From Candidatus Omnitrophota bacterium (GTDB lineage Bacteria > Omnitrophota > Omnitrophia > Omnitrophales > Aquincolibacteriaceae): a DNA stretch of 64,000 bases. The notes beneath the pieces are model-generated. The model saw only the letters and a program-made list of their open reading frames with translations, did no database searches and had not been told where the DNA came from. The stretch spans positions 76,901-140,900 of the forward strand of contig DAOPYQ010000003.1 of the NCBI GenBank assembly GCA_035352955.1. The letters are read 5' to 3'. Each line of letters begins with the position of its first letter. The stretch's first letter is position 1. Position numbers and translations under genes: made by a program. Shown here one piece after another: positions 2,689-43,170 of the stretch.

Positions 2689-2898
2689 AGGATCATTCCT
2701 CGACTTGTTGTATTCCGGAGAGACCGCCTTATAAAAATGCCACGGAAGAGTTCTTGGCACCGGATCCCATTCCGTGGCGGACCATGACGAAAACTGCTCC
2801 ATTATAAAAAATCCTCCTGGTGTGTCAATCGGTTTCTTCCCCCTAAGTGCCGAAATCTCCTGGCTTTACAACATTTTTCCTGCATGGTATGTTGGCGC

Positions 2899-4335: not shown

Positions 4336-4362
4336 CCCGCCCCAAAAACAGGACCTCTTTTC

Positions 4363-5185: not shown

Positions 5186-5258
5186 AGCTGGTGGTCAGAA
5201 TCGAACTGACGACCTGCTGTTTACGAAACAGCTGCTCTACCAACTGAGCTACACCAGC
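5186..5258 (-). tRNA. tRNA-Thr (anticodon CGT)
   Basis: Manual fold of the minus-strand sequence gives acceptor GCTGGTG/CACCAGC, D arm GCTC-AGTTGGTA-GAGC, anticodon arm GCTGT-TTCGTAA-ACAGC, and T arm GTCAG-TTCGATT-CTGAC. The 3' CCA is not encoded. Confidence 0.85.
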
Positions 5259-12129: not shown

Positions 12130-12200
12130 AGCGGGATACGGGAATCGAACCCGTCTGACCAGCTTGGGAAGCTGGGACATTACCACTATGCTAATCCCGC
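12130..12200 (-). tRNA. tRNA-Gly (anticodon CCC)
   Basis: Manual fold gives acceptor GCGGGAT/ATCCCGC, D arm GCAT-AGTGGTA-ATGT, anticodon arm CCAGC-TTCCCAA-GCTGG, T arm ACGGG-TTCGATT-CCCGT, and discriminator T. Confidence 0.85.
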
Positions 12201-20733: not shown

Positions 20734-23700
20734 TTAAGCGGCCGACGCGATCCTCTGGAACGCTTCGAACAGCACCTGCATGTTCTGCAGCATGCCATCG
20801 ATACTCTTCTTCGTGATCGCCAAACCCGAGGCGCCTTCTTTTTCAAAACCCGGCATTTTCAACAAAAGATCGGCCATCTGCTCCGGCGTCATTCCGCTCA
20901 GATTCCAGATCTTCTGGGCGCCGCGCATAGCCACACGACCCACCGCAGCCTGCGAAACGGCCCCCTGAACATTGTCCGCTTCGCGAACCACCACCCCGGT
21001 GACAAAGCTAAGATTCAGAAAGCTCAGAGCATTCGCCGTACCGGTCAAGACATACCCTTTCCCTTTAACCAGGGCCAGGAACTCCGCTGCCTTGGAATTA
21101 AAATCGTGCGCTTGAGGATCAAAAACCCTGATATCCACCTGGCTGATGAACGCCGGCCGGTGGATCTTATTGGCCCACGCCGCAAAATCCAGGAGAACCT
21201 GACGCACCGCGGCAGCATCGATCCCCGAGCCCAGCACCATCGTATCAAACCGCATATTGGGGTTCAGAAGCAGATTAAACTTCAAGAGAGCCAGAAACAC
21301 CTTCGGGTCCTTGAAGCCTTCGATCACTTTCACCAGACGGCCCGCATCCCCGCTGATCGGCAGAGGCATATTCGGCACCGCATTCTGCAACTGCTCCGTC
21401 AGACCCGTAATGGTCCGCTCATCGACAAGCAATGAGATCGCGATGATCACCGGCGCGAGAGCTTCCATATTGTCGCGTGCAATCCCCTCCGTCAGCGCCA
21501 CCGCCACCTTAAGCGCCGGCGTTTTGAGCTCAGATTCCGGGATCCCCATCGCCTTCAGCGCTTCCCGTGTCGTCTCCATCGCCGTCCGGACCTGCTGCTT
21601 TGTAAAATTCTGTTCGACCCACTTGGCTACGGCAAGCTGCCTTTCGGAAACAGAAACGTCCCGGCGTTCGGCGCGCCCGGCTTCGGCGGCCTTGACCTTT
21701 GCAGCCTCCTCGAGACGCTCAGCCTTAGCCTTCGCCGCGAGAGCGAGAGCGATCGCCCGCATCTCATCAAAAGTCGCGCCCCGGTCGATCGCCGTCTTGA
21801 TCGCCACACGCCCGGCGCCCTCAATTTCAGCCAGCGACACCACCGCCGAAAGCAAGAGAACCTCCCGCTCATCCGACGTGGTCGCCTTGTCCGTAATAAT
21901 GTCGCGAAGCGAACGGAAACCAACGATTTCCCGGCCCTCGGCATCGCGGGCGGGAGCATCAAAACTATTAAAGAAATCCGTGTACTTCTGATATCGAGTG
22001 TCCGTCTGTCCCAGAATGAGCCCGGCCGCATCGGGCTTGGCATCCGCGGGAATCTTCAACACGTTCCAGAAGGCGTGACTGACCTGGTGCTTGGATTTTG
22101 CAGCCGCATTCCACACCTTGAAGTCCGCGATGTTATTGTTGTCCTCAAGCGCCAGACCCGGCACCTCGCGGCTCAGAATCTCAAGAGCTTTGTCCGAGGT
22201 CATTTCCAATTTCCCGGCGCGCGGCGACAAAGCCGTACGAACGGACGGCGCTTCGATCCTAGTGACAGCCTCCTCGCTCAGAACCCACTCCTGGGGAAAC
22301 GTATTGATCCCGGAAGTCAATTTTGTGAGATCCAGATCCTTCGGGATCATGACATTCTGCGGCGCGATCCCCCGCACCAGGTGGCGGATGTAAAGATTTC
22401 CTTCAAACGCGAACACCGCAACCACAAAATTCGCATCCAGAACAAACTGCGGATCGTTCGAGCTGACCCGGATCTCCACTTTTTTCTTGTCACCGCTCAA
22501 GCGCACATTGATACGGCTCGGAACACCTTCCAGGTCCGTCCTCGCGGCATTCACGGAAGTTTCGAGAGCCGTCGCCTCCAGTACTTCGGACTGGATCGCC
22601 AACGCCTGCTCCTTCGTGTATGTTTTGAGGCTCCGGATAAGCTCCTGAAGCTCGGTTTTCGTAGCACCTTCGGGGAACCCATACGTTTCAACGATCGTCT
22701 CCAACGTCCGCACAAGCTCCGGCCTTGAATTTTTCATGAAATACGCATTCTCAAACGCACGCACTCTCAAACCCAAATTGGTATCTTGCGGCGTGAACGA
22801 CCGCTGTCTTATAATGGAAGTCAAACGGAAAGCCTCGTCCAATTCGTTCAACGTCATCTCCCGCTTCTCTGCGCGGAGGGTGGAAAGGGCCAGCGACGAA
22901 AACAACCGGAAAGCCTCGTCGGCGCGGGCCTGATCCTCCGGAGCAACGGTAAAGAGTTTCGTTTTGATCGATCTCAGGGTCATGGAGGTATCATCCCCAT
23001 CGTCGTACTTTTGTTTCGCCATCTGGATGATCCCGACGAGGTCCATCGTCGTGATCCCCCGAGCCACACTCTCAGCTTCCGTCAAAGCGCTCAGGATCTG
23101 CGGAGGATCGATCACCCTTGAAAGATCCGAAGCCGTCAAGATGGGCTCTTCCTGTCCGACAACCGTTGGCGTCCTCTGAGCCGCAGTAGAAACCCTGATC
23201 GCTGAAGCCAGCGGCGGCACATTCGCCGCCATGGGAACATCCCGCTTCTCACTGTTGGCGCGAAGTTCCTTCGAAACAGCGGCCTTCGCGGCTTCCGAGA
23301 ATTTCCCGGTAAAAAACGGATTCAATTCCGCGAAAGTATCGCGACTGACCGAGGGCCTCCGGGCCTTCCGGTACAATTGCCACGCGCCATAGATCGCCTT
23401 AACCAACGATTCGTTGCCGGTGGCACTCTGGGTAGCCGCCCAAAACGCGGCATCGATCTCTCTGTCCGTTAAAGTCCCCTGTTGAACAACCTGCAGCGCT
23501 GTCCAATTCACCGTGGGGTCACCCTCCTCCGTCAGACCACGCTTCTCCGCGCGGATTTCTTTGCGCGACGCGGCATCGAGCATGGGACGAAGCCCGTCCA
23601 AATAGTGTTTCACGGCCGCATTGTAGGCCTTGGCTTTGAAAACGCTTGTATTGGCATAAAGATCCTTAACCGTTTTAAGAGCATCCCGGTCCAGCGGCGT

Positions 23701-26700
23701 GTCCACCGGTGTCGCGCTATCAAGTCCGACGCCTCCGTTCCGTCCTTTCCCCAAATCCGCGGCCTCGCTCCGCACCGCAGCGCCGCCGGCGTTAAACCGG
23801 TAGAAAGAGATCAGATCATCGAACAGCGCCATCCATTTTTCGGCACGCACAGCCTGCGAATTCTTGGGATCCAAGGCTCCCGCAAGAAGATCTTCCAAAA
23901 CAACGTGCTTGCGCGCGCGAACGATCTTGACAAGATCCTCAACCGTTTTCGGGGCTTCGACCAGCGCCCCAGCCGTCACAACGGTCCCCGTGGGAGTCAC
24001 GACCATCCCGGCCGTCGCAGCAACCGGAACCGACGTCATGAGCAGACCCGCAGCCGCCAGTTCCTGGATTCCGAGCCGCTTTTCCGCCCGGGTGATGTCC
24101 ACGATCTCGTTAGAACCAAGTAAAACCACCATCACACGGCCTGTTACCTGCCGGACCTCGGTACTGTTCGCGTTCAAGCCGGGCATGTGCTCGTCCCAAA
24201 GTTGACGCAAGATCGGAAAGACAATCCGCGAATTGACCGCGTAGAAATCAAGCCCTTTGAATGCGCCGACACCTTTACGCGCAACGATGGCATTCGCAAG
24301 CGCTTCGATCAGCCGGTCCTGCTCATCAGCGGCAGTAGCCAGACGCAATCTCGTCGCTAAATCAATGACCTCGGGCGCTGTGCTTAAGAATTCTATAGCT
24401 TCCAGATTTATTCCCTTCACCTCCGAGCGGGCGGGAGGACGGACCCCGAGCCGCTTTTCCGCCCGGGTGATGTCCGCGATCTCGTTAGAACCAAGTTTGA
24501 TCCGGTGAGTCACGGGACTCATGGCCCGGTTAATGACGACCCTGTAGGAAACTCCCGTCTTCAATTGTCCTTTGAGGAGCTCCTGCCAACGGAAAGTCCG
24601 ATCATCGAAAACAATCGTCGGCCCATCCGTCGTAACATGCACCGTCATCCCGATCCCCTTTGACGCATTCTTTTCCAAACGTCCCGCCAGGAAAGGAACA
24701 ACCTGGTCGGCGGAAAGTACTTCAGTCGCCAACTGGCGCGCGGCAACGACAACGTCGCGATTAGCCTCAACATGGGCAGTCTCGATCTTCCGCGCCAGAT
24801 CCTCTTTCTGAAGATCGTCGTAGAATTCGGCTCCCAACACGCCCTGCGAAATCTCCGCCGCGGAATAGCCCTTCGAATCGGACTGTTTGATCAGCTCGAT
24901 CTGCGCCGCATTCAAGCCGAAACTCTCAAGGCCCTCGGCCAACCTCGCCATAAGCTCGAAATTAACACCTCGCAGCGTCAGCGCAAGCTGCAACGTCTCA
25001 CGCTGGATCGCCAACGCGAGCCGCTGTCTCGCGCTTTTGATCCGGCCTTTAACAAGATCCCGGTCGATCGACAGGAAATCCTCGGCAAGCTCCGCGGTGG
25101 ACGCACGGTCCAACTCACTGAGCCTCTTAAACTGCGGAACCGCGCCCGTCCAGAGACGCAGCTGCAATTCGATACGTTCGGGGCTGGTTGTGAGCCACCG
25201 TTTAAGAGACTCACTCTGCTTCGGAAAAAGCGTCACAAAAGATTCGGCCAGATCCCTGAAAAGTCCGGTAAAGAGCATCGCCAAAGGTAAAAACAAAGCG
25301 ATCCCCCCCACCGCCAACGCGTACACCGGGATCCCGAGAGATGCATTAGCGAACGCCACCGCCGCCGCCACAGACACTCCGGCACTCAGGGCGAGACTCC
25401 CCCCGCGGATAACCTGCATAGTCTTTTCAGAAAGCGGTGACACCGAAGGCTCTTCGAGGGAAGATTGGTAGACCGCTGACCAGACGAACTTGAGGACTGC
25501 GCGGATCACGGTCGTAGAACCGGCCGCGATCAGCAAAAACACTGCGATAGTCGGCAGAACCGCCAGCGTACCGACTGCTGCTGCCAATGCCTGCAGAAAG
25601 AAAAACGCCGGGATCAACGCCAGCATCCAGCTGGCCGTTTCCAGGCTTCCACGAATCCCGGCTTCCCTGTCCTCACGGGCCTGTTCGGCTTGCATCGCTA
25701 CGGACATCGCCGGATTGAGCGCCGCGTTTGCGAGATTCACCTGACGGCGTTCCGCGACACGCGCGGCTTCTCCCGAGACGTAATAAGAGATCTGGTCATA
25801 AATAACCGCAAGCGACGGGATCGCAAGTGTCGCCGCGACGATCAGGGGCATGATAAAAATCCCGGTCACCCCGGCCAACACTCCGCTGATGAACGGATAC
25901 ACAAGACCGGCGATCGACGTCGCTCCGGCGGCGATATTCGCGCCCAGGGACGTTCCGATCGTCATAAAATCCTTTTTCTCGCCGCGCTTTTCCGCGCGGA
26001 TAGAAAAAGCAAAAGCATTGAAAGCTCTTTCAGCGACCGCAACGGTGATCCTGCCATCATCATCCACCTGCGGGGCGAAAAGAAGCTCCCACAAACGCGT
26101 CAGATCCGGATTAGCAGACATCTTCGGGATTTTCCCTGTCGCCCGCACCATGACCCCCTGACGTTGATGATAAGCCTCCCAGGCCGCCTGGAGGACATTC
26201 CAAACATTTTTGTCGCGTTCCACCGCCTGAGTAAGAACAGCCCTATGAAAAGCCGACTCGATCTCCACCGGGGTCGGCTTAAAATCCATCCCCATCGGAT
26301 CCTTGGCATACGCCTCAACAACCCGGGCAAAGGTTTCTTCGAGAATAGCCGCGTCCTTGATCCTTTTAGGGTCAAAACACTGCGTCTTAAGCGTCGCCAG
26401 GTCCATGTTGGCGGGCGTTCCCAGGCGCTTTTGTTCCTCTAGCCATTTGGAGTACTGTCCCATGGCTGAATCAAGAGCATCCTGGATCTTAGAGATCTTT
26501 ATTTTCTCAGGGGACTCCTCGGCCGCGTTCCGGAACGATGAGCTTTCAATTTCGGCGGCCAATTGGACCCTTTCAAAAGCCCTCCGGATCTGGAAAGATT
26601 CCAGATCCGCCCGCAGGTCCGCGCCGCGTCTTTCCGAGCGCAGACTGGACACGAACAGATCATAGGCCTCATCCACATCCGCCTGCGTGATCCGGGGTTC

Positions 26701-29700
26701 CGCGGTTTTGGGTTGACGGCCCGTCTGTTCGGTAAAAAACGACTTCATGCCGGACAACGTTAAGGCGGCTATTTTCTTGTAAGCTTCCGCTTGTCCCCGG
26801 GCAAGTGTCACCTCTTTGTTGTAAGCCTCCCAAGCCTGTTCGAGAACATTCAACGCGGAACCCGTCGCAAGGGCTGACGCCCGGTTAAAAGCGAACCACG
26901 CCCGAAGACCATTCACCGGCGTTTGCGGATTTACTCCGGTCGTTTCTTCGGCGCGTTTTTCCTGGCGCGACGCAGGCAGGCTCAATGGCTTGAGGATCCA
27001 AAGAACGCCGGCCACAGTGATGGTCGCGTTGGAAGTCGCTGTGGTGGCCCGGAGAATTATCGGCGTTTTGCGGTGACGAACCTCCATAAGAACGGCGTTA
27101 ACGCCCTGGAATTCCTCGTCGGTTAAAAACCGTCCGAGGCTCCCGCCTTTTTTACCATCCTCATATTGAACCACCGGATATTTCGCAAGGACCGCTTCAA
27201 GACGGCTCTGTTCCGCAACATTGTTGGTTTGCTGGGCCTGCGTAAGGGCTTCGGCGATCTGACCGATCTGGACCCGGACCTGGTCGGCGTCGACCTGGAG
27301 GAACTTCGCAAGATCCGCGACCTGCTTCTCGGTAAATACTATCTTCTGCTCCCCGGCAAGCTGCGTCGCCCGTTTTTCTTGGCGTCCGGCAAGTGTCACC
27401 GGGACGGAAAAAAGCGGCCGTATCTCGATCGCATTGTCCTTCATACTCACCGAATATGTTTTTTCCATCGTCTCGGGAATCGAGTCGGGAAGATCCATCT
27501 GAAGCTTGAACTGCGCCAATTCCCCGAGATTTAAACTGTTTTTCGTCAACATCTGATCGTCCCCGGAATAGTTCCCCTCAAAAATGGGGTCTTTTCCGAC
27601 GAGATCGCTGTCCCCGAATCCGAAGATCCGGAGGGCCACGGAAGTCCTGCGGCCTTTATTTCCACGCGCGGTCAGCGTCCAAAGAGTATTCACCACGCGC
27701 GGAATGTTCTCCAATTGCGTTCCGCGGAGCTCCTTGCGGCCAGCGGCATTGAGAAACCCATTCGTCCCGCCAATGATCCCGGCAAAAAGTGTCGGAGAAT
27801 TGAGAAAAGCATTTGTCATGATCGTGTAGCTCGGCGTTTGGGGAGTCGCCTGAAAACCCCGGCTCACGACCGCCCAACCATTCGTATCGGTCAACCGATT
27901 GTTCGCGACAATATAAAAAACCATGTTGGTAATGTCCGAGGAAGTCCCCATCGTCCAACCCGCGAGAACCCCAGTGGGGGTTTTCTCAAGAAAATTCATG
28001 CGAGGAGAAGCCTCAGTGGTCTCGCCTTTACCAAACGAAACAAGTTGCGTCCCCACAGGCACTTCATTTGTTGTAAAAGCACCCGCCACACTCGCTATCG
28101 AGAGAGCAAAGATCAACCCAAGTGCGCGCCACATAGCCGGCAACATTTTCAAATTAACGGGCCCGCGTTCTGACGGCGTTCCGCGGAGCTCCTTGCGGCC
28201 AGCGGCATTGAGAAACCCATTCGTCCCGCCAATGATCCCGGCAAAAAGTGTCGGAGAATTGAGAAAAGCATTTGTCATGATCGTGTAGCTCGGCGTTTGG
28301 GGAGTCGCCTGAAAACCCCGGCTCACGACCGCCCAACCATTCGTATCGGTCAACCGATTGTTCGCGACAATATAAAAAACCATGTTGGTAATGTCCGAGG
28401 AAGTCCCCATCGTCCAACCCGCGAGAACCCCAGTGGGGGTTTTCTCAAGAAAATTCATGCGAGGAGAAGCCTCAGTGGTCTCGCCTTTACCAAACGAAAC
28501 AAGTTGCGTCCCCACAGGCACTTCATTCGTCGTGAAAGCTCTCGCCGAGAGCACTGCCCCAAACGCGAGAGACACGGCCAGCAAAATCGATTGTAATCCC
28601 CGGGAAATATAGATCGGCGATTTCACAACGGGCGCCGTTTCCTCAACGCCGAGGCCAAGCGCTGTAAAAAAGTTCATACCCAACCTGACCCCCAGCGCGC
28701 TAAGCGACCTCATCAGAGTGACATCCGTAAGCACCGGCATCACGGCCAAAAAGTCCCGGATCTCCTGCGTCAAACCCGGTTCGAGCGGACGTGTCGCGAT
28801 AATGTTATTCAACTCGGCAGCGATCTTTTCTTCCTTCTGGGCCCGCGTCATGCGCTTTTCCGCGCGGGTGTACGTGACCAGGATCGCCGGATTCCCAAAC
28901 CTGGAAGGACGGATTTGCACAACAAACGGCCCCTTACCGTTAACAGCCGCTAAAGCGTTCGTCAGGCTTTCCGGACCGGAATAATTGACCGGTTGCTCCG
29001 CCGTATCGCCGCCCATGATGAGAAAAACTCTTGCGGAAGGATTCAGTTCGACAAGACGGGCCACGGCTTCACGGACCCCGTCCAGATTGTCCACCTGCTT
29101 GGGTCCACGATAGTCCCGCCCGTCGATCACAGCGTCCACCTCGCCCCTCTTTTCCGCGCGGGGAGTACCCACGTCCCGATCGTCTTGAATCACGCCACCC
29201 GCAACCGGACCCATTTTTAGTAGATTCATATCCCCCGTAGGAATTTCCGGGGATTTCATCCGCGTGGCGGGTCCGTCCGGAAAGATACTTTTGGAAAGAC
29301 TCGCTCTCTCGTTCCTGTTGCGGATCCAGCGGGCGGCCGAAACCGCTCCGGCGACAACCCCCACGCCAAGGATCACGGCGAGAGACACGCCGGTCGTAAG
29401 AAAAGCCAGTCCTGCCGCCGCCAACGCGATCGCGACGCCGCCGAGAACAATGCTGTCTTTCCAGGCAGGCTGAAAATAAACCATCGAAATTTTGGAGAAA
29501 TCGAACTTCCCCGACGTGAGATCAGGGATCTTCCACTCGGCCAGCATTCTCTTGGCCAGTGTTTCCCTTTCATTAATACTAAAAAGCCTGTCTTGTAGCA
29601 AATGGTGTGCGAAGTTCGTCCTCTCGTCCTGCAGCAGCCACGGACTTTGGGCGGTCTGGGGAAGCTCCCGCTTTTGGTCCTCAGACTTCCCGCCGTTAAT

Positions 29701-31788
29701 GGCAAGAAGCCGCATAAGCTCGTTAACTTTCTCGGGAGTGTAGATCGCGTTAAGCTTTTCGATCGCAGCCTGGCGGACCGCCGGATCCTCACTTCCCAGA
29801 TCCCTTAGCGATGCCGCGGCAATTTCATTTCCCTTGTCCAAGGTCGGCGCAAGCATCTCAGGCAAAATCTGCCCCATTTGAACGGCAATCGTGTCGTCGA
29901 CTATGGCAGTCGCACCGTCGATCCCGACCTGGTCGGGACTGACCTTGCGAAGAACGCGGTACGTTTCACCGCCCTCTTTCGCTTGGACGAGCCGCAACTC
30001 ATTGCGACGAGCCATGGGCCCGTCATTCACGTCAGGAAGGATCCCGGCAGGTGTTGGGACTTCTGCCACTTTGGTTGCGGTCGCAAGTAATTTGCCCAGG
30101 ACCCCCAGTTCCCCAACACCCTGCGCATCCTGGCCGACAGGTCCTTTGAGCGGCTGAGCGAGAAGGGTTTTTTCGACAAAAGACAGCTCGAAATTCTGCT
30201 TTCCGTCCTGGAGCATGGTGGAGCGGTAAAGTCTCTCGTCGGATTTTTCACTAAGGCGCGGGGTGACGATCCCATAGCTCACGGAATTTTCGCGGAAAAG
30301 GTCGCTCATGCCGTCCGTGTGAAAACCGCCCGTGATAAGGACGGCCTTCGTGATCTTGCGCTGGCTCATGGCGTTCTGCATTTCTTTATAGAAGACGCCT
30401 TCACGCTGACGGGCGAAACCGTAGAACTCAAGGCCGGTCTTGAACAGCTCGGTCATCTTTCCGCTAAAAGCCTTGGGCATGACCTCCTGGTCTTTGCGGA
30501 CCGAGGTATCCCCCGCGGCAATGATCGCGGTCTTCAGGCGTTCGACAAGGTTCGTCACGGTCACACGATCCCCGGCATCGACCAGCTCGCGCCACTGCGT
30601 GCGGCTCAACTCCAGATGCAAAAGCTTACGCAAAAGCTCACCGTCCCTGTAAAGGGCAAGGAGGGCCTTCTGCTGAGGCTCCTTGGCTAAGGCATCGAGC
30701 ATCTGCGTAAAAAGGTATTCAATCTCCGCGAACAGGACCTTGGGGTCAAGTTCGGCCCGGAGCGTCACGTAACCGGCAAAAAGGCTGAACGCAGGATAAT
30801 CGCTGAATTTGAATCCTTTGGGGGCGACTTCAGCGGCAAGGCGCTCGAGCACGTCGCGCGGAGAAACTTCCTGCGCGGATTTTCCGACGGAGATGCTCCC
30901 TTCATTGAAACTTTCAAGCGCGGCAAGAAGTTCTTTCGAGACGCCCTTCGTTTTGAGCATTTTGAGAAGCGCGGCCTTTTCTTCGAGTCCCTTGGCTTTG
31001 TCCAGGGACTTTTCCATTTCCTGGATGGCCAGAAGGCGCGTGATCTGCGGCCAGCCGGCCTGGGCGAAAAGGCTGTTAAGATCGACATCGAGGATTCTCC
31101 TGGACTGTTTGGCGAGCTGCTGAACGAAAGGCATGAATTCGCGGCGGCCCAGCTCGAAACGTTTCCAGTCGGCGATCAGGGCGCGCGTCTCGGGCGTAAA
31201 GACCTTGGAGGCGGCCCGGTCGAGCTTCTGATCAAATCCCTGAAAGAAACGGTTGACGTCGGGTTCGGCGCCGAACACTTTCTTCAGCGCTTCGTAGTTG
31301 GCCTTGTAAAGAGGCGCCTGCTCGATGCCGAGTGCTTCGACGTTCTTCTCGTTCTCCATCAGGAACAGTTCGGAACCGGTCAGCTCGCCCTGCTTGGCGA
31401 GTTCGTCGCACAGTTTAAGATTGCGTTCTTCATCGGGAAAAAGGCGGAGATAATCCGCATCGAGTTTGGTCGAGGCCCCTTCCACAAAAATGGTCGTGAA
31501 TCCGTATTTCTTGTTCATGTGCTCCAGAAGTTGCTTGATCTTCATCTGGGCTTGATAATTGGCGTGCGCGTTCTGGATATGAAGGATGAATTGCGGTGCA
31601 GTAGATGCGGGCGCTTCGTAAAGAGCATCGACGGTGCCGAGATCCACGGGAACATCAATGCTTAAATAAGTGGGCAGTTCTCTCTTGGACGCAATTTCGA
31701 TATTAGCACCGGGGGCCCCCCATGCGATCTGTGTCGTGAGAAAGCAAACCACGGTCGCCGCCGCGATCACCTTCAGGCCCTTTTTCAT
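20734..31788 (-). CDS. Giant 3684-aa secreted/membrane protein of unknown function, with an N-terminal TraB/GumN/Tiki-like domain
   Basis: Uninterrupted 11,055-nt ORF with a signal peptide MKKGLKVIAAATVVCFLTTQIAWGAPG. The N-terminal roughly 530 aa carry TraB/GumN-family motifs: HIQNAH, FVEGAS, and GGFHTDG...YGIV. A central cluster of 6 or more TM helices maps to about 25250..26000. The sequence also has a recurring RAEKR motif and an internal perfect tandem duplication. Confidence 0.8.
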   Translation of the reverse strand: MKKGLKVIAAATVVCFLTTQIAWGAPGANIEIASKRELPTYLSIDVPVDLGTVDALYEAPASTAPQFILHIQNAHANYQAQMKIKQLLEHMNKKYGFTTIFVEGASTKLDADYLRLFPDEERNLKLCDELAKQGELTGSELFLMENEKNVEALGIEQAPLYKANYEALKKVFGAEPDVNRFFQGFDQKLDRAASKVFTPETRALIADWKRFELGRREFMPFVQQLAKQSRRILDVDLNSLFAQAGWPQITRLLAIQEMEKSLDKAKGLEEKAALLKMLKTKGVSKELLAALESFNEGSISVGKSAQEVSPRDVLERLAAEVAPKGFKFSDYPAFSLFAGYVTLRAELDPKVLFAEIEYLFTQMLDALAKEPQQKALLALYRDGELLRKLLHLELSRTQWRELVDAGDRVTVTNLVERLKTAIIAAGDTSVRKDQEVMPKAFSGKMTELFKTGLEFYGFARQREGVFYKEMQNAMSQRKITKAVLITGGFHTDGMSDLFRENSVSYGIVTPRLSEKSDERLYRSTMLQDGKQNFELSFVEKTLLAQPLKGPVGQDAQGVGELGVLGKLLATATKVAEVPTPAGILPDVNDGPMARRNELRLVQAKEGGETYRVLRKVSPDQVGIDGATAIVDDTIAVQMGQILPEMLAPTLDKGNEIAAASLRDLGSEDPAVRQAAIEKLNAIYTPEKVNELMRLLAINGGKSEDQKRELPQTAQSPWLLQDERTNFAHHLLQDRLFSINERETLAKRMLAEWKIPDLTSGKFDFSKISMVYFQPAWKDSIVLGGVAIALAAAGLAFLTTGVSLAVILGVGVVAGAVSAARWIRNRNERASLSKSIFPDGPATRMKSPEIPTGDMNLLKMGPVAGGVIQDDRDVGTPRAEKRGEVDAVIDGRDYRGPKQVDNLDGVREAVARLVELNPSARVFLIMGGDTAEQPVNYSGPESLTNALAAVNGKGPFVVQIRPSRFGNPAILVTYTRAEKRMTRAQKEEKIAAELNNIIATRPLEPGLTQEIRDFLAVMPVLTDVTLMRSLSALGVRLGMNFFTALGLGVEETAPVVKSPIYISRGLQSILLAVSLAFGAVLSARAFTTNEVPVGTQLVSFGKGETTEASPRMNFLEKTPTGVLAGWTMGTSSDITNMVFYIVANNRLTDTNGWAVVSRGFQATPQTPSYTIMTNAFLNSPTLFAGIIGGTNGFLNAAGRKELRGTPSERGPVNLKMLPAMWRALGLIFALSIASVAGAFTTNEVPVGTQLVSFGKGETTEASPRMNFLEKTPTGVLAGWTMGTSSDITNMVFYIVANNRLTDTNGWAVVSRGFQATPQTPSYTIMTNAFLNSPTLFAGIIGGTNGFLNAAGRKELRGTQLENIPRVVNTLWTLTARGNKGRRTSVALRIFGFGDSDLVGKDPIFEGNYSGDDQMLTKNSLNLGELAQFKLQMDLPDSIPETMEKTYSVSMKDNAIEIRPLFSVPVTLAGRQEKRATQLAGEQKIVFTEKQVADLAKFLQVDADQVRVQIGQIAEALTQAQQTNNVAEQSRLEAVLAKYPVVQYEDGKKGGSLGRFLTDEEFQGVNAVLMEVRHRKTPIILRATTATSNATITVAGVLWILKPLSLPASRQEKRAEETTGVNPQTPVNGLRAWFAFNRASALATGSALNVLEQAWEAYNKEVTLARGQAEAYKKIAALTLSGMKSFFTEQTGRQPKTAEPRITQADVDEAYDLFVSSLRSERRGADLRADLESFQIRRAFERVQLAAEIESSSFRNAAEESPEKIKISKIQDALDSAMGQYSKWLEEQKRLGTPANMDLATLKTQCFDPKRIKDAAILEETFARVVEAYAKDPMGMDFKPTPVEIESAFHRAVLTQAVERDKNVWNVLQAAWEAYHQRQGVMVRATGKIPKMSANPDLTRLWELLFAPQVDDDGRITVAVAERAFNAFAFSIRAEKRGEKKDFMTIGTSLGANIAAGATSIAGLVYPFISGVLAGVTGIFIMPLIVAATLAIPSLAVIYDQISYYVSGEAARVAERRQVNLANAALNPAMSVAMQAEQAREDREAGIRGSLETASWMLALIPAFFFLQALAAAVGTLAVLPTIAVFLLIAAGSTTVIRAVLKFVWSAVYQSSLEEPSVSPLSEKTMQVIRGGSLALSAGVSVAAAVAFANASLGIPVYALAVGGIALFLPLAMLFTGLFRDLAESFVTLFPKQSESLKRWLTTSPERIELQLRLWTGAVPQFKRLSELDRASTAELAEDFLSIDRDLVKGRIKSARQRLALAIQRETLQLALTLRGVNFELMARLAEGLESFGLNAAQIELIKQSDSKGYSAAEISQGVLGAEFYDDLQKEDLARKIETAHVEANRDVVVAARQLATEVLSADQVVPFLAGRLEKNASKGIGMTVHVTTDGPTIVFDDRTFRWQELLKGQLKTGVSYRVVINRAMSPVTHRIKLGSNEIADITRAEKRLGVRPPARSEVKGINLEAIEFLSTAPEVIDLATRLRLATAADEQDRLIEALANAIVARKGVGAFKGLDFYAVNSRIVFPILRQLWDEHMPGLNANSTEVRQVTGRVMVVLLGSNEIVDITRAEKRLGIQELAAAGLLMTSVPVAATAGMVVTPTGTVVTAGALVEAPKTVEDLVKIVRARKHVVLEDLLAGALDPKNSQAVRAEKWMALFDDLISFYRFNAGGAAVRSEAADLGKGRNGGVGLDSATPVDTPLDRDALKTVKDLYANTSVFKAKAYNAAVKHYLDGLRPMLDAASRKEIRAEKRGLTEEGDPTVNWTALQVVQQGTLTDREIDAAFWAATQSATGNESLVKAIYGAWQLYRKARRPSVSRDTFAELNPFFTGKFSEAAKAAVSKELRANSEKRDVPMAANVPPLASAIRVSTAAQRTPTVVGQEEPILTASDLSRVIDPPQILSALTEAESVARGITTMDLVGIIQMAKQKYDDGDDTSMTLRSIKTKLFTVAPEDQARADEAFRLFSSLALSTLRAEKREMTLNELDEAFRLTSIIRQRSFTPQDTNLGLRVRAFENAYFMKNSRPELVRTLETIVETYGFPEGATKTELQELIRSLKTYTKEQALAIQSEVLEATALETSVNAARTDLEGVPSRINVRLSGDKKKVEIRVSSNDPQFVLDANFVVAVFAFEGNLYIRHLVRGIAPQNVMIPKDLDLTKLTSGINTFPQEWVLSEEAVTRIEAPSVRTALSPRAGKLEMTSDKALEILSREVPGLALEDNNNIADFKVWNAAAKSKHQVSHAFWNVLKIPADAKPDAAGLILGQTDTRYQKYTDFFNSFDAPARDAEGREIVGFRSLRDIITDKATTSDEREVLLLSAVVSLAEIEGAGRVAIKTAIDRGATFDEMRAIALALAAKAKAERLEEAAKVKAAEAGRAERRDVSVSERQLAVAKWVEQNFTKQQVRTAMETTREALKAMGIPESELKTPALKVAVALTEGIARDNMEALAPVIIAISLLVDERTITGLTEQLQNAVPNMPLPISGDAGRLVKVIEGFKDPKVFLALLKFNLLLNPNMRFDTMVLGSGIDAAAVRQVLLDFAAWANKIHRPAFISQVDIRVFDPQAHDFNSKAAEFLALVKGKGYVLTGTANALSFLNLSFVTGVVVREADNVQGAVSQAAVGRVAMRGAQKIWNLSGMTPEQMADLLLKMPGFEKEGASGLAITKKSIDGMLQNMQVLFEAFQRIASAA
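27717..28527. repeat. Perfect in-frame tandem duplication inside the giant gene (period 459 bp = 153 codons)
   Basis: 27717..28068 is 100% identical to 28176..28527 (352 bp). Both copies encode AFTTNEVPVGTQLVSFGKGETTEASPRMNFLEK...NAAGRKELRGT. Each copy is preceded by a diverged hydrophobic segment. Confidence 0.85.
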
Positions 31789-31960: not shown

Positions 31961-32689
31961 TTAAATGGTTACGAATTCAACGCCAAAACCAAGTTGCTCC
32001 TTGCGAACTTCCTCTCGACGGATCTTCCCGGCAACCTGGTACTCCTCCGGAAAATTGGCACTTGGGAAGATATGAATGTCGACCTTGAGTCCCGCAAGGG
32101 GCCCAAGAGCCGAGATCCGATGCGCCGCACCAAGGTCCAAATACTCCGCAAACAGCCCTCCTTCGCTGATATTGGTCGCGATGGCGCGCGTTTGGAGAAC
32201 CTCCCCCTTCGGGCTTGTGATCGTGAGCTTCAGCGGGATCGCCACATGCATACGATGACTGCGGCGCTTTTCGAGCTGGTGCCCCGGCGAATCCTGCGGG
32301 TTTTTTACCCCCGGCGCCATGATGCGCTTTTCCGCGTCCTTGTCAAAAAGGAACGGCCCGAAACTTTCCGCCACTTCCTTTTCGTCCGCGCACACGTCGA
32401 CCTTCCCGGTAAAGCAATTATCCTCGAGATAATGGGCCATCTCCGCGGAGGCCCCATAGATCACACTGTGCTTGGGGCGGATGCAGACCGTCAGCAGCCT
32501 TCGCAGACCGATCGCGTCAAGCGCTCCGGCCTCCTGGAAATTCAAAATGATCCTCTGCAGACGGTGGCGCCGAATGTTCTTCTGGATCTTCCAGGCAACC
32601 TCCTGCACGGATTCAAAGGTCGGCTCTCCTTTCAAGTCAAAGACAGCGACCCCTCCGATCTCTCTGGTGGAATAGTGGAATTTGCTCAT
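31961..32689 (-). CDS. STAS (anti-sigma-antagonist-like) + PilZ (c-di-GMP-binding) fusion protein
   Basis: N-terminal STAS-like region VAVFDLKGE...ILNFQEAGALDAIGLRRLL. The SpoIIAA phospho-serine position holds Ala, so it is not phosphorylatable. C-terminal PilZ motifs RRSHR (RxxxR) and NISEGG (D/NxSxxG). Confidence 0.7.
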   Translation of the reverse strand: MSKFHYSTREIGGVAVFDLKGEPTFESVQEVAWKIQKNIRRHRLQRIILNFQEAGALDAIGLRRLLTVCIRPKHSVIYGASAEMAHYLEDNCFTGKVDVCADEKEVAESFGPFLFDKDAEKRIMAPGVKNPQDSPGHQLEKRRSHRMHVAIPLKLTITSPKGEVLQTRAIATNISEGGLFAEYLDLGAAHRISALGPLAGLKVDIHIFPSANFPEEYQVAGKIRREEVRKEQLGFGVEFVTI

Positions 32690-32924
32690 GACAGATTTTT
32701 CCTCTTTTTACTGCGTTCGATCCTTCTGAGGTTCCTGTGAAGTCTCGGGTACATATAACCCGATAACAAATCACCCCGCAAGATCACACAAGGAACGTGA
32801 GGACCTCCTTTCCCATTCATCATTCTCAAGCCTTTCATCACGCTCAAATCATGCGTCATTTTCCGTATCTCCCTTTTTCAAGATTATCAGTCGTTTTACT
32901 ATGCTTTTTTTCACTTCTACATGA

Positions 32925-32953
32925 AACATAACTCAATACAATACTTTTGTCAA
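32925..32953 (-). promoter_or_regulatory. Possible sigma70 promoter (TTGACA-N17-TATGTT) inside the AT-rich island, upstream of the STAS-PilZ and giant genes
   Basis: Hexamers were read from the sequence. It would give an unusually long 5' leader of about 230 nt. Confidence 0.25.
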
Positions 32954-33170
32954 TATCTTAAATAAATAAATAAGTATTAGATTTAATTAAGTCTTATGTT
33001 TATCAATATATAACAAGTTTAATCAATAATATACTTAGCGCGAGCCATTTCGACACACATTTTAAATATCACCAATGGAAACCAACGGGAGAGAAAAACA
33101 GCGGATTTCAACAGCCCAGGGTCAGCAAAAAGCCTCAGTTCACCCTGGCTCGAAAGAAAGAAACAACACT

Positions 33171-34577
33171 TTAAGCGACCGGCCCCCTCGGAGACTTCCG
33201 AAAAAACTTAATGCGCTCGATCAGCGTTTTTTCGAAACCGATAGGTTTGGGGATGTAATACTGCGCGGATTTATCGAGATAGACTTGGCCTCTGGCTTCC
33301 TCCGGCTTGTCGTGCGGATAAATATATCCGACCCCATGACCGAGATCCTTGGCGCCGGAATACGCGCTACTGCGGAGATGCTGCGGCACCTGCTCGAACT
33401 TTTTGGTCTTGATGTCCTCGGTAGCGGTTTCAATTGCCATGTAACTCGCATTGCTTTTCGGCGCGAGCGCGAGATACGTCACGAGCTGCGAAAGAATGAT
33501 ACGGGCTTCCGGCATTCCGACAAACTCCACGGCCGTAAAACCGCTCGACGCGAGGATGAGCGCCTGAGGGTCCGCGTTCCCGATGTCCTCACTGGCGAAG
33601 ATCACGAGACGGCGCACGATAAACCTGGGATCCTCGCCCGCGTAAAGCATCTTCGCAAGCCAGTAAACCGCCGCGTCCACATCCGAACCGCGAAGGCTCT
33701 TGATGAAGGCGCTGATCGTATCGTAATGCTGATCCTCGTCCCAGTCGTAATGGACGATCTTTTTCTGGCAGGATTCTTCGGCGACCTCCGGCGTAAAATG
33801 AACGATCCCCTTCTCATCCGGCGGCGTCGTCAGGACGCCCACCTCGAGGGCGTTCAATGCGCGCCGGGCATCTCCGGAGGCTTGCCGGGCAATGTGCGCG
33901 AGCGCCTCGGGGGCCGCCTCGATCTTCAAGTTCCCGAACCCTCGGTCCTTGTCGGCAAGCGCCCTCTTCATCAGCGCGATCAGATGGGATTCTTCGTGAG
34001 GCTTCAATTCACAGACCAGGGAGCGGGACAGAAGCGGGCCGCGGATCGCGAACGTCGGGTTTTGCGTCGTCGCGCCGATCAGGATAATGACGCCGGACTC
34101 GACGTCGGGCATCAGGATGTCCTGCTGGGCCTTGTTGAAACGGTGCATCTCATCGATAAAAAGAACGGTCTTGCGGCGCGATTGACGAAGCAACTTCCGC
34201 GCCTCGTCCTGGATCTTCCGCATCTCGGCGACGTTGCTCAACACCGCATTAATCGAGACATAACGCGCGGCGGTCATGCGGGCGATCACCAGCGCAAGCG
34301 TCGTTTTGCCGATGCCGGGCGGGCCGTAAAGGATCAGCGAAGTCAGCCGGTCGGATTCGAGGGTGCGGCGGAGAAGTTTTCCGGGCCCGAGAAGATGGTC
34401 CTGCCCCAGGATCTCCCCGAGGGTCGCCGGCCGCATCCGGACGGCCAGCGGCGCGCCATGCGGGACCTGCAGGGAATCGTCGACTTCGGATTGATGGAAT
34501 AATTCGTCAGAAAAGCCGGAGGAAGGATAACGGATGGAGGACGAAGCTTCGGCTTTCAGTTTTTCGTCATCCTTCAT
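33171..34577 (-). CDS. rarA: Replication-associated recombination protein A (AAA+ ATPase, MgsA/RarA)
   Basis: MRPATLGEILGQDHLLG, Walker A GPPGIGKTTLA, Walker B VLFIDEMHRFNK, and the MgsA C-terminal domain. Confidence 0.9.
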   Translation of the reverse strand: MKDDEKLKAEASSSIRYPSSGFSDELFHQSEVDDSLQVPHGAPLAVRMRPATLGEILGQDHLLGPGKLLRRTLESDRLTSLILYGPPGIGKTTLALVIARMTAARYVSINAVLSNVAEMRKIQDEARKLLRQSRRKTVLFIDEMHRFNKAQQDILMPDVESGVIILIGATTQNPTFAIRGPLLSRSLVCELKPHEESHLIALMKRALADKDRGFGNLKIEAAPEALAHIARQASGDARRALNALEVGVLTTPPDEKGIVHFTPEVAEESCQKKIVHYDWDEDQHYDTISAFIKSLRGSDVDAAVYWLAKMLYAGEDPRFIVRRLVIFASEDIGNADPQALILASSGFTAVEFVGMPEARIILSQLVTYLALAPKSNASYMAIETATEDIKTKKFEQVPQHLRSSAYSGAKDLGHGVGYIYPHDKPEEARGQVYLDKSAQYYIPKPIGFEKTLIERIKFFRKSPRGPVA

Positions 34578-34588
34578 CCGTCATCCTA

Positions 34589-36655
34589 TTAGCTCTGAAA
34601 AGACGCCTGATATTTTTCGACCAGCGTGCGGGCGATCGTATCGTGGATTTTCTGAACTTCGTCGGAAACGAGGGTGCGAACGGGCGACTGATAGATCACG
34701 CGGAACGCGAGGTTCTTGCAGCCTGAGGGAACGCGCTTGCCGCGAAAAAGATCGAACAAAACGACGTCCCGGATCAGCCCCTGCCCGAGGCCGCGGATCT
34801 CGCCCGTCAGATCCCCGCTTTTGACGGAGTCCTTCACAACGATCGAAAGGTCGCGTTCGATCGCGGGATATTTCGGCCATTCCTCGAATTTCCGAACCCC
34901 CCGGGCGTGCTCCAGAAGTTTCTCGAGCGACACTTCCGCGTAATACACCGGCTCCTTAAGATCCCATAGCTTCAAGAGTGCCGCGGACACCTCTCCCATA
35001 AAAGCCACCGGCGTCTGCCAAACGCGGAGCTCCTCGGCGATCCCGGGCGCGAAATAACTTTTTTCGGATTTTGCGACGCAAAGCTCCGTCGCTCCGGCGA
35101 TCCGGAGAATCGCCTCAACACACCCCTTGAGATCATAGAACGTCGCAGGCCTCGCCTGATCGAGCCAGGTCTGCGCCGCTTTCTTGCCGTAAAGGGCGAT
35201 GGCACAAATACACTCTTCCACGGGGTGTTTGTGACTATCGGGCATCGCATAGATATTGGCGATCTCGAACACAGCGACCGAATCAGCGCCCCCGGCATTC
35301 ACGTTCGTCCGGATCACGTTGAGGAGGCTCGTCACCATGGTCGGCCGCATCCAGTGGAGCCCATGCTGAAGCGGATTCACGATCTGCACGGCATGTTTCA
35401 GGTCTTTTTCGGGATCCAACCCGTCTTCGGCGATAAGGCTGAACGTCACGGTCTCGGAAAGCCCCGCGCCGCTTAGCTGCTGACGGACCTTCTGCTCGAG
35501 CGCGAGCCTCGGATTTTCGTTCACGGCGATCGGTGCCCTGGCCGGAAGCGTTTCGGGAATGTTCTCAAAACCGTAGATCCGCGCGATCTCTTCAACAAGG
35601 TCAACCGGACGCGTCAGGTCCGGCCGGAACGAAGGGATGCCGACGGTCCATACTTCGGCGGAATGCTGTTTCACGTCGAGGCCGAGCCTTCCCAGGATGA
35701 GCGAGATCTGGCTCGACTTGATCTCCACACCGAGAACCGACTTCACATCGTCGCTGCGGAGCGAAACGGTCTTGACGGCAAGCTGGGGCTTCTCCCCCGC
35801 CTTGATCATCGCGCTGATGTGGCGCGGCTTGGCGTACTTTTTGATGAGCGCGAGCGCGCGGCGGCTGCCGAGGTCCACGGCTTCGGGGTCCACCCGGCGT
35901 TCAAACCGGTACGAAGAATCGGACGATAACTGGTGCCGGCGCGAAGTCGCCCGGACGCGTCCGGGATTGAAGAAAGCGGATTCGAGGAAAACATTCCGCG
36001 TGCGATCCGTGATCTCGGAATCCTTACCGCCCATGACCCCGGCCAGGGCGACCGCGTGATCGCTGTCGGCAATGACCAGATCGTCGGGTTTGAGTTCAAG
36101 GGAACTGCCGTCGATCATCAAAAGTTTCTCGCCGGCCTTGGCCTTGCGAACCTGGACTTCTTTGCCCTTCAGCAGATCAGCGTCGAACGCGTGGAGCGGC
36201 TGGCCGACCTCAAACAAAACATAGTTCGTGATATCGACAATGAGGTTGATGCTGCGGACACCGCACGCGAGGAGACGGTCCACAATAAAATCCGGCGTCT
36301 TGGTCTCCGTGATCCCTTCGATCAGGACCCCGGTATAATACGGACAGCCTTCGACATCCTTGATCTTGATGTCCCATCCAGGCGGCGGCACACTGCGACC
36401 CGCCTCGGGATCAACCGCAGGACCTTTGACGGAGATATTCTCGACCGCGGCGATCTCGCGCGCGACACCCCAATGGGAAAGCCAGTCGGGACGGTTCGAG
36501 GTGATCTCGATCTCGAAGAGCGTGTCCGAGGGACTCTTGAGCGTCTCGCATTTTTTGACCTCGAGACCGGCAAGCGTCAGACGCTCGGCGATCCGCGAAA
36601 GCGGCGGCGCCAACGTGATGAAATCCTTCAACCAGTTTGTCGATATTTTCATCAA
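34589..36655 (-). CDS. pheT: Phenylalanine--tRNA ligase beta subunit (688 aa, TTG start; it lacks the usual N-terminal tRNA-binding domain)
   Basis: B3/B4, B5, FDX-ACB and catalytic-like domains are recognisable. The protein starts MMKISTNWLKDF. Confidence 0.88.
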   Translation of the reverse strand: MMKISTNWLKDFITLAPPLSRIAERLTLAGLEVKKCETLKSPSDTLFEIEITSNRPDWLSHWGVAREIAAVENISVKGPAVDPEAGRSVPPPGWDIKIKDVEGCPYYTGVLIEGITETKTPDFIVDRLLACGVRSINLIVDITNYVLFEVGQPLHAFDADLLKGKEVQVRKAKAGEKLLMIDGSSLELKPDDLVIADSDHAVALAGVMGGKDSEITDRTRNVFLESAFFNPGRVRATSRRHQLSSDSSYRFERRVDPEAVDLGSRRALALIKKYAKPRHISAMIKAGEKPQLAVKTVSLRSDDVKSVLGVEIKSSQISLILGRLGLDVKQHSAEVWTVGIPSFRPDLTRPVDLVEEIARIYGFENIPETLPARAPIAVNENPRLALEQKVRQQLSGAGLSETVTFSLIAEDGLDPEKDLKHAVQIVNPLQHGLHWMRPTMVTSLLNVIRTNVNAGGADSVAVFEIANIYAMPDSHKHPVEECICAIALYGKKAAQTWLDQARPATFYDLKGCVEAILRIAGATELCVAKSEKSYFAPGIAEELRVWQTPVAFMGEVSAALLKLWDLKEPVYYAEVSLEKLLEHARGVRKFEEWPKYPAIERDLSIVVKDSVKSGDLTGEIRGLGQGLIRDVVLFDLFRGKRVPSGCKNLAFRVIYQSPVRTLVSDEVQKIHDTIARTLVEKYQASFQS

Positions 36656-43096: not shown

Positions 43097-43170
43097 TGCG
43101 CTGTAGAGGATTCGAACCTCTGACCCCTACCATGTCAAGGTAGTGCTCTAACCAACTGAGCTAACAGCGC
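43097..43170 (-). tRNA. tRNA-Val (anticodon GAC)
   Basis: Manual fold gives acceptor GCGCTGT/ACAGCGC, D arm GCTC-AGTTGGTTA-GAGC, anticodon arm CTACC-TTGACAT-GGTAG, T arm AGAGG-TTCGAAT-CCTCT, and discriminator A. Confidence 0.85.

Follow-up and report, generated by a model that had tools for sequence, protein, structure and literature searches.

In a 64,000-nucleotide stretch of DNA from a Candidatus Omnitrophota bacterium (contig DAOPYQ010000003.1; hereafter the window), a giant open reading frame (ORF) at positions 20734–31788 of the minus strand encodes a protein of 3684 amino acids (aa) in which the pentapeptide RAEKR recurs. Comparison with related sequences indicates that RAEKR is the private dialect of this gene, and that it belongs to an inter-module motif, R-[SA]-E-x-R, shared by the whole protein family. 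We put the probability that R-[SA]-E-x-R is a selected, family-wide module-boundary motif at about 0.9. With regard to its function, the preferred reading, to which we assign a probability of roughly 0.4, is that the motif is a cleavage site.

To our knowledge, members of the Omnitrophota encode the longest known proteins. Cleavage has been hypothesized for the giant proteins of this phylum (10.1101/2023.11.21.568195; 10.64898/2026.06.07.730766); the question has been raised of whether they act as single chains or are cut into many products, and the cleavage points have been stated to be unknown (10.1101/2023.11.21.568195). No inter-module motif is described in either of these preprints. In this study, the motif copies of the window protein were mapped, and the residue preferences, the positions relative to modules and the codon usage of the motif were analyzed across the family.

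Motif copies in the giant protein

The seven exact copies of RAEKR, all read from the translation of the minus strand, are located at aa 877 (29146–29160), 975 (28852–28866), 1931 (25984–25998), 2442 (24451–24465), 2567 (24076–24090), 2746 (23539–23553) and 2972 (22861–22875), against 0.007 copies expected from the amino-acid composition of the protein itself. An earlier note on this DNA had listed these seven copies with their flanks, and every one of them was found in the quoted context; its chance expectation was 0.001, and both this and the composition-based figure given here are negligible. The variants that it named are likewise present, namely RQEKR at aa 1469 (27370–27384) and 1608 (26953–26967), RAEKW at aa 2648 (23833–23847) and NSEKR at aa 2845 (23242–23256), and two copies can be added to its list: RSERR at aa 1717 (26626–26640) and RAERR at aa 3372 (21661–21675), the last copy, which stands directly before the C-terminal domain. 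The protein thus holds nine strict R-[SA]-E-x-R copies and two RQEKR copies, in which Gln at position 2 is a residue enriched approximately threefold family-wide.

The tripeptide EKR occurs ten times in the protein (0.88 expected), and all ten occurrences fall in RAEKR, RQEKR or NSEKR sites. RAEKR is absent from every other frame of the 64 kb window, and the frequency of R[AS]ExR in the other ORFs of the window does not exceed chance level. Since the RAEKR copies differ from one another in their synonymous codons, they do not represent a copied piece of DNA. Among the variants, RAEKW 2648 ends in TGG, one base away from an RAEKR ending in CGG, and is probably a decayed copy, as Trp at position 5 is not accepted in the family. 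NSEKR 2845, in which both the Asn at position 1 and the AGT serine codon are atypical, is doubtful and may be a chance match or a decayed copy. Two occurrences of RKELR and one of RKEIR (aa 2742, overlapping the RAEKR at 2746) were not accepted as firm copies, because Lys at position 2 is not enriched family-wide (seven observed, 5.7 expected), and RNELR at aa 595 was left uncounted as part of a confidently predicted β-hairpin that closes the N-terminal domain.

The ORF is read in a single frame on translation down to a stop codon at 20734–20736. It begins with a Sec-type signal peptide, MKKGLKVIAAATVVCFLTTQIAWG, cut before AP, and a Shine–Dalgarno (SD)-like sequence, GAGGAGGA, 8 nt upstream of the ATG, is the ribosome-binding site of the gene. 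The signal peptide is followed by the family-defining N-terminal domain (N-domain; aa ∼26–615, 29944–31713, minus strand), and the C-terminal domain (C-domain; aa 3382–3684, 20737–21645, minus strand), recognized by its identity to the C-termini of relatives, ends in an amphipathic helix and ...QRIASAA-COOH. The presence of domains typical of the family at both ends shows the giant ORF to be intact. Searches of Pfam and NCBIfam returned no matches in the giant protein or in its complete relatives, a homologue search with the motif-rich segment aa 2230–3010 returned no match, the segment itself included, and Tandem Repeats Finder reported nothing within the ORF. As a side observation, an Rfam scan of the window returned three tRNA genes only (5186–5258, 12130–12200 and 43097–43170, all on the minus strand).

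The protein family and its motif

Relatives were collected through the N-domain, by a word-indexed search (21 matches), a profile search (69 matches) and a metagenome scan (261 relatives, of which 80 loci were examined), and an exhaustive profile search yielded 9130 representative clusters at an E value no higher than 1e-3. The giant protein belongs to a very large, unannotated Omnitrophota family, with N-domain identities of 28–76% and a common layout of a signal peptide, a conserved N-domain of ∼600 aa, a hypervariable modular middle and a C-domain of ∼300 aa. The shortest complete members have ∼1000 aa, and the lengths reach 7498 aa among the best 150 matches listed. One metagenome sequence (L029, Ga0209099_1047860) is 100% identical to aa 1–218 and therefore comes from the same or a nearly identical organism.

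The most informative relative is a syntenic locus found by a genome scan in a Candidatus Omnitrophota metagenome-assembled genome (L001, contig JAZDJU010000067.1), which shares with the window the gene order pheT, mgsA (AAA+), STAS-PilZ and giant gene (31961–36655 in the window, 19–3658 in L001). The giant ORF of this locus, which is at least 3954 aa long, is similar to the window protein over aa 1–572 only, with 63% identity, and no similarity of its body to the window protein beyond aa 572 was detected by BLAST. RAEKR does not occur in it; instead, R-S-E-[VMIL]-R is present 12 times, whereas R[AS]ExR would be expected 0.13 times. Up to 16 motif copies per protein were found in the 80 metagenome loci (0.1–0.3 expected), and 107 further representatives contain 590 copies (14.6 expected), with up to 23 in a single protein. 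The earlier note had named a lack of conservation in homologues as one outcome that would refute it; the motif is kept, as R-[SA]-E-x-R, in bodies without detectable sequence similarity to that of the window protein. In the non-family ORFs of 81 loci, approximately nine copies were counted against ∼8.4 expected, and every additional motif-rich ORF in these loci proved to be a neighbouring paralogue of the family.

Residue preferences were derived from 765 motif copies in 119 non-redundant relatives. Positions 1 and 5 each have Arg in 661 cases and Lys in eight, and position 3 has Glu in 661 and Asp in 16; Arg1, Glu3 and Arg5 are near-invariant, and neither Lys nor Asp is accepted in their place. 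Position 2 is Ser (563) or Ala (202), with Gln mildly enriched, and position 4 is variable: Val 238, Ala 131, Leu 110, Met 81, Thr 57, Ser 56 and Ile 44. The flanks carry no more than 0.35 bit across the family and are enriched in small residues only. The Thr or Ile before and the Gly or Leu after the motif, which the earlier note had taken as a conserved context, are present in the window protein and are local to it.

Individual proteins use their own dialects, such as RAEVR 15 times (P0167), RSESR nine times (P0093) and RSELR ten times in one protein, and copies agree at position 4 more often within a protein (identity 0.33) than overall (0.17). Lys at position 4 is repeated in the window protein only, and no other member has two or more copies of R[AS]EKR. 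This bears directly on the proposal, made in the earlier note, of a site for a dibasic-specific protease. RAEKR ends in Lys-Arg and recurs many times, as do Kex2/furin sites and the sites of fungal Kex2-processed repeat proteins; the family, however, has Val, Ala, Leu, Met, Thr, Ser or Ile at position 4, with Val, Ala or Leu foremost, and Ser or Ala rather than Arg at P4. The invariant Arg1, Glu3 and Arg5 form neither a K/R-R pair nor a furin R-x-K/R-R site, and the dibasic-protease proposal therefore fails.

One clade of the N-domain tree lacks any RxExR and reiterates [AG]-x-S-L-G, with 8–14 SLG per protein compared with ∼1.3 expected (loci L039, L040, L042, L045, L047, L048, L050, L051, L056, L060, L062, L065, L070, L078 and L079). 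The motif class thus tracks the lineage of the N-domain. The SLG motif has a mild codon bias only, which argues that the function shared by the two motif classes is exerted at the protein level. In one relative, P0040, SLG and R-x-E-A-R are adjacent (…TGSLGGRERPEARR…).

Position of the motif at module boundaries

The motif copies of the 119 proteins are spaced by a median of 241 aa (interquartile range 122–412). The first copy lies at a median of 187 aa past the GGFH signature, just beyond the N-domain, and the last at a median of 312 aa before the C-terminus, which corresponds to the length of the C-domain; in the window protein, the C-domain begins right after RAERR 3372. Recognizable domains are bracketed by copies. 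The Glucosamine_iso domain of P0066 (aa 1214–1423) has RSEVR at 991 upstream and at 1451 downstream, and a module shared by the window protein (aa 3067–3200, 22189–22590, minus strand) and P0048 (916–1044) starts at QSEVL in the former and PSEVR in the latter and ends at a decayed RA-GKL and an RSEAR, respectively. In two internal repeats of the window protein (aa 1082–1205/1235–1358 and 1647–1722/1864–1936), the similarity stops at the motif or at the motif-like RKELR. The suggestion of the earlier note that the copies mark the boundaries of cassette-like modules is borne out by the spacing, the domain edges, the bracketed Pfam domains, the repeat ends and the module shared with P0048.

Hydrophobic content is lowered between −15 and +9 relative to the motif, a stretch of ∼25 residues. 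Downstream of 15% of the copies, a transmembrane (TM)-like helix begins no more than 30 aa away (4% at random positions), and such a helix ends within 30 aa upstream of only 1.3% (4.2% at random). In the window protein, RAEKR 1931 is followed by a run of TM-like helices (a Kyte–Doolittle window segment at aa 1959–2000, the hydrophobic stretch being judged by eye to begin at aa ∼1945), and RAEKR 2567 by a TM-like segment at aa 2579–2597. A twin-arginine (Tat) signal was considered and rejected, as the arginines are three residues apart with an invariant Glu between them and only 15% of the copies precede a TM-like stretch. These results show a selected, family-restricted pentapeptide that lies in short linkers between modules, is defined at the protein level and tolerates nothing but Arg, Glu and Arg at its three fixed positions; presumably, it is recognized by a reader.

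The modules themselves are diverse. Ordinary enzyme domains were identified with Pfam in the middles of relatives, namely Glucosamine_iso (6-phosphogluconolactonase-like), PFK-like, PrmA-like methyltransferase and HATPase_c domains, and the variable middle resembles that of the 'multi-enzyme' Omnitrophota giants (Nielsen & Lui, 2026, 10.64898/2026.06.07.730766). Enzyme domains typical of the cytoplasm are thus found inside members that bear signal peptides (P0066 1214–1423, P0071 956–1043, P0062 762–854 and P0040 793–905), and the same localization paradox was noted for larger giants by West-Roberts et al. (10.1101/2023.11.21.568195). An AlphaFold2 (AF2) model of the 1049-aa P0049 contains a β-sandwich, a linker without order and a region of helices, and its C-domain is a Rossmann-like α/β domain whose terminal helix is long.

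Codon usage at the motif

Codons were counted at the R-type motif copies of L001–L081 and the window ORF, with expectations taken from the usage of each gene. At Arg1, CGC was observed 112 times (42 expected); at Ser2, TCC 82 times (29 expected) and AGY four times (49 expected); at Glu3, GAG 114 times (72 expected); at position 4, the Val codon GTG 53 times (20 expected) and the Ala codon GCG 32 times (10.7 expected); and at Arg5, AGG and CGG together 113 times (65 expected). The resulting 15 nt consensus is CGC-TCC-GAG-GYG-MGG, in which the first and last arginines prefer different codons. Conserved N-domain sites behave differently, with GAA used for 66% of Glu and AGG for only 8% of Arg. 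This pattern may stem from SD-like pausing, from tRNA choice or from recombination.

All matches to the DNA motif in the window are in frame and lie in the giant ORF. A single out-of-frame CGCTCGGAG was noted in L001 (7696–7704), where ∼0.05 is expected in 12 kb; it may be the remnant of a frame-shifted copy or chance. Three nucleotide-level candidates were rejected: a plain nucleotide repeat (an uptake sequence, a repetitive extragenic palindromic sequence or a recombination site), as the copies are in frame, restricted to this ORF and varied in codons; a 15 nt RNA hairpin, as pairing judged by eye is not kept across dialects; and internal translation starts after an SD-like motif, as Met, Val and Leu are not enriched downstream.

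The codon pattern could mean that the 15 nt consensus, alone or with the nascent peptide, is a signal that pauses the ribosome at module boundaries, such that a finished module folds or enters the membrane before the next emerges. The strong departure of the motif from the codon usage of each gene, which the conserved N-domain sites do not share, speaks for such a signal, as do the GAGG SD-like cores, the AGG or CGG codon of the final arginine next to a differently encoded first one, and the TM helices that often follow the motif. In L001, CGCTCGGAGGTGAGG occurs four times and contains GGAGGTGA, and the ribosome-binding site of the window gene is the SD-like GAGGAGGA. However, the motif is defined much more tightly in amino acids than in nucleotides, since the residues at position 4 vary the first and second bases; the RAEKR copies of the window use GCG GAA AAG CGS, which is not SD-like; and TCC is favoured although TCG would improve the SD match. 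Furthermore, the SLG motif shows only its mild bias, the DNA motif is practically absent from the other frames and from the opposite strand, and no start codon is enriched downstream. A signal at the translation or RNA level is therefore considered unlikely. A special form of it, in which peptide and codons together act on the ribosome to cause a pause, separation or restart at module boundaries as a functional counterpart of viral 2A 'StopGo', would have the position-specific conservation of synonymous codons as the footprint of its mechanism; we judge it to be very improbable.

Internal repeats and local homogenization

Three internal repeats were found by chunked self-BLAST of the giant protein, and two pairs of motif copies fall in homologous segments: RSERR 1717 and RAEKR 1931 in a repeat with 32% identity (aa 1647–1722/1864–1936), and RAEKR 2442 and RAEKR 2567 in a repeat with 35–45% identity over ∼125 aa (aa 2352–2507/2482–2629). 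The flanks of the remaining copies have no mutual similarity detectable by self-BLAST. The statement of the earlier note that the flanks are unrelated is thus mostly correct, these two pairs excepted, and its description of a reiterated short linear motif rather than a domain repeat holds: the other outcome that it had named as refuting, a location of the copies inside one repeated domain family, does not apply to most copies. Chance recurrence or ordinary divergent domain repeats, for which the two pairs would speak, are refuted by the copy numbers in the window protein and across the family, the unrelated flanks and the retention of the motif class in non-homologous bodies, and we give this explanation practically no weight.

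The third repeat, aa 1082–1205 and 1235–1358 (27717–28016 and 28176–28475, minus strand), is 100% identical over at least 300 nt at a spacing of 459 nt. On the coding strand, each identical tract stops a few bases past RKELR-GT (aa 1198 and 1351), and upstream of the identical part the protein identity is only ∼48%, which suggests an old duplication that was refreshed by recent gene conversion. Similarly, 56 nt tracts that contain RAEKR 2442 and 2567 (24441–24496 and 24066–24121) and encode LGSNEI(A/V)DITRAEKRLG are 95% identical, whereas the rest of that repeat is diverged to its 35–45% protein identity. The tract represents a local homogenization with the motif at its centre, and it suggests that the dialects arise in part by gene conversion.

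These tracts raise the question of whether the motif is a recombination junction, that is, a 15 nt microhomology for the in-frame duplication, swap or deletion of cassettes, with the peptide as a by-product kept uniform by gene conversion. The homogenized tract, the perfect duplication that ends next to RKELR, the dialects within proteins at both the residue and codon levels and the entirely different bodies of orthologous genes would fit this explanation. On the other hand, codon sharing at position 1 is nearly as high between genes (0.40) as within a gene (0.44), such that the bias is family-wide and homogenization is not the main signal, and the strict Arg, Glu and Arg with a free position 4 are the signature of a protein-level function. 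The SLG clade lacks nucleotide conservation, 15 nt is short for homologous exchange, and gene conversion could account for the dialects without being the reason for the motif. Recombination as the purpose of the motif therefore seems distinctly improbable.

Proposed readers of the motif

In the preferred reading, the motif would be recognized by a site-specific endopeptidase, and the proteins would be bacterial polyproteins cut into module-sized products. The products released would be modules that evolve fast, are unrelated to one another and form a chain between conserved N- and C-domains; they comprise orphan folds, TM helices and, in the case of relatives, enzymes. The endopeptidase may be one of the domains of the family itself or a factor specific to the lineage. 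The N-domain, one candidate for the reader, would also be a candidate endopeptidase on account of its conserved His/Glu/His set and a weak hint of an erythromycin esterase/Tiki-like fold. In an AF2 model of aa 25–640 (mean predicted local distance difference test score of 85.9), it consists of a small α/β core split by a helical insert of ∼320 aa and followed by a β-hairpin. Its conserved alignment columns comprise H70, H75, E103, E156, R251, E259, R311 and a TGGFH490 stretch, and the putative catalytic set formed by these eight residues is common to the RxExR and SLG groups. The α/β core with a helical insertion, H75 with E103 28 residues later, and the late His of GGFH490 recall the erythromycin esterase, ChaN, Tiki and TraB/PrgY proteins; the His/Glu/His set may be comparable to the catalytic residues of Ere. 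The fold matches to this superfamily are, however, nonsignificant (E values of 0.7–3.6, TM-scores of at most 0.24), and there is no Pfam or PDB sequence match.

Several observations weigh against cleavage. No protease domain was found with Pfam or NCBIfam or with an N-domain profile against PDB sequences (0 matches), and a Foldseek search of the PDB with the N-domain gave nothing significant, only EreC and an Ere-like entry within the above range (the nonsignificant matches were 6xcq, with an E value of 0.68 and a probability of 0.23, 6xcs with 3.6 and 2rad with 2.6). No more than two columns of the N-domain, N164/D and L364/F, tell the RxExR and SLG clades apart, and the N-domain is thus not clearly the determinant of specificity; a factor acting at the level of the organism would account for the distribution of the motif classes just as well. 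Many family members of ∼1000 aa have no motif copy, the copy at aa 873 of P0049 falls within a helix predicted with confidence, and in P0025 and P0030 the motif is five residues from the C-terminus, where cutting would be of little use. Finally, if the motif served proteolysis alone, its strong position-specific codon bias would not be expected.

Some of these observations are better accommodated if the motif is never cut and serves in docking or tethering, bound by the N- or C-domain of the same protein or by a partner, for example as a β-strand with Arg, Glu and Arg on one face. Binding at many points would fold the module chain back, bundle it or anchor it, and the protein would be one scaffold and not a polyprotein. 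The data on specificity, boundaries and dialects underlie docking as much as they underlie cleavage, and docking needs no protease, which fits the failed protease searches; copies near the extreme C-terminus, and natural C-termini of the type ...E-L-R-x-A-A-S-A, fit binding better than cutting. The absence of a conserved neighbouring partner gene would be in keeping with a reader that is part of the protein itself. Against docking, no binding pocket was identified, the same two clade-specific columns are all that the N-domain offers, and the fusion of unrelated enzymes into one chain is left unexplained. The sites decay easily (RAGKL, RAEKW), which would be tolerable for multivalent docking and equally for cleavage. 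Overall, docking is the main rival of cleavage and a possible function of the motif, although a somewhat unlikely one.

The C-domain of the window protein is 27–32% identical to the C-termini of P0039, P0031, P0052, P0054 and L016, and a Foldseek search of the PDB with the C-domain returned only a generic α/β match to NgBR (E value of 0.013) and nothing significant. Of 205 family tails, 143 end in AA (72) or SA (71). In complete members, an amphipathic helix leads into a terminal -[SA]-A-COOH, which is almost always present, often with an Arg five or six residues from the end (RLAASA, ELRTAAAA), and this ending resembles a C-terminal recognition tag (20737–20790 in the window; C-termini of P0007–P0188).

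With respect to gene neighbourhoods, no conserved partner gene was found beside family genes; the neighbours are housekeeping genes, which differ between the window and L001 on the one side and P0042 on the other. Family genes often stand in tandem or divergent arrays of paralogues (L013, 3–8435, minus strand; L016, 1–4500, plus strand; L033, 15170–21682, plus strand; L042, 2–7858; L051, 2–9997; L056, 3–9998), and neighbouring paralogues share the motif class. In L074, the family gene appears to be split by a frameshift (383–2104 and 1981–4422), the downstream ORF having RAEVR five times and no N-domain; the split probably reflects an assembly error or a pseudogene.

Comparison with known systems and implications

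Read as cleavage sites, the motif copies recall viral polyproteins (picornavirus 3C, Q/G; flavivirus NS2B-NS3), in which a strict short site likewise stands at domain boundaries with free flanks and lineage dialects. The present proteins differ in their bacterial host, in their hypervariable modules in place of a fixed gene order, and in that no protease domain was found and cleavage is only a candidate. MARTX toxins are also giant modular bacterial proteins, and in the family, as in MARTX, a domain of the protein itself would release modules by cutting linkers; however, no MARTX cysteine protease domain (CPD) was detected here with Pfam, the MARTX sites are loose Leu sites and not a strict pentapeptide, and MARTX toxins belong to another family and phylum. 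The LPXTG, PEP-CTERM and GlyGly-CTERM sorting signals share with the motif a short signature, a TM helix within ∼30 residues and a clear polarity, whereas the present motif is internal and reiterated and 85% of its copies have no downstream TM helix. A sortase- or exosortase-type signal, which consists of one C-terminal motif, a TM helix and a basic tail, was therefore rejected for a motif that is internal and present in up to 23 copies, and no sortase or exosortase partner was found in the neighbourhoods examined.

Also comparable are the 'Archaeovorins' and 'multi-enzyme metabolic clusters' of the Omnitrophota (West-Roberts et al., 2023, 10.1101/2023.11.21.568195; Nielsen & Lui, 2026, 10.64898/2026.06.07.730766), which have in common with the present family the phylum, signal peptides or TM helices, mosaics of enzymes and dark sequence, and unique bodies. 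The present family is set apart by its own N- and C-domains and by its smaller size (1–7.5 kaa here). A full-text search for the motif strings in the literature collection used here returned unrelated alginate-lyase papers only; the RSELR/RSEVR string of PL7 alginate lyases is a single-copy active-site strand and is unrelated.

The finding brings to light a large protein family that is unannotated and whose terminal domains are conserved, and it poses an evolutionary puzzle, namely concerted dialects of a short motif within hypervariable genes, together with a constraint on synonymous codons. The strict pentapeptide provides the first concrete candidate sites for the cutting or docking of Omnitrophota giant proteins, and it can be used for targeted proteomics, for reporter assays and for splitting giant ORFs into modules for structure prediction. 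The finding generalizes far beyond the window, and the question of whether and where the giant proteins of the Omnitrophota are processed becomes experimentally concrete.

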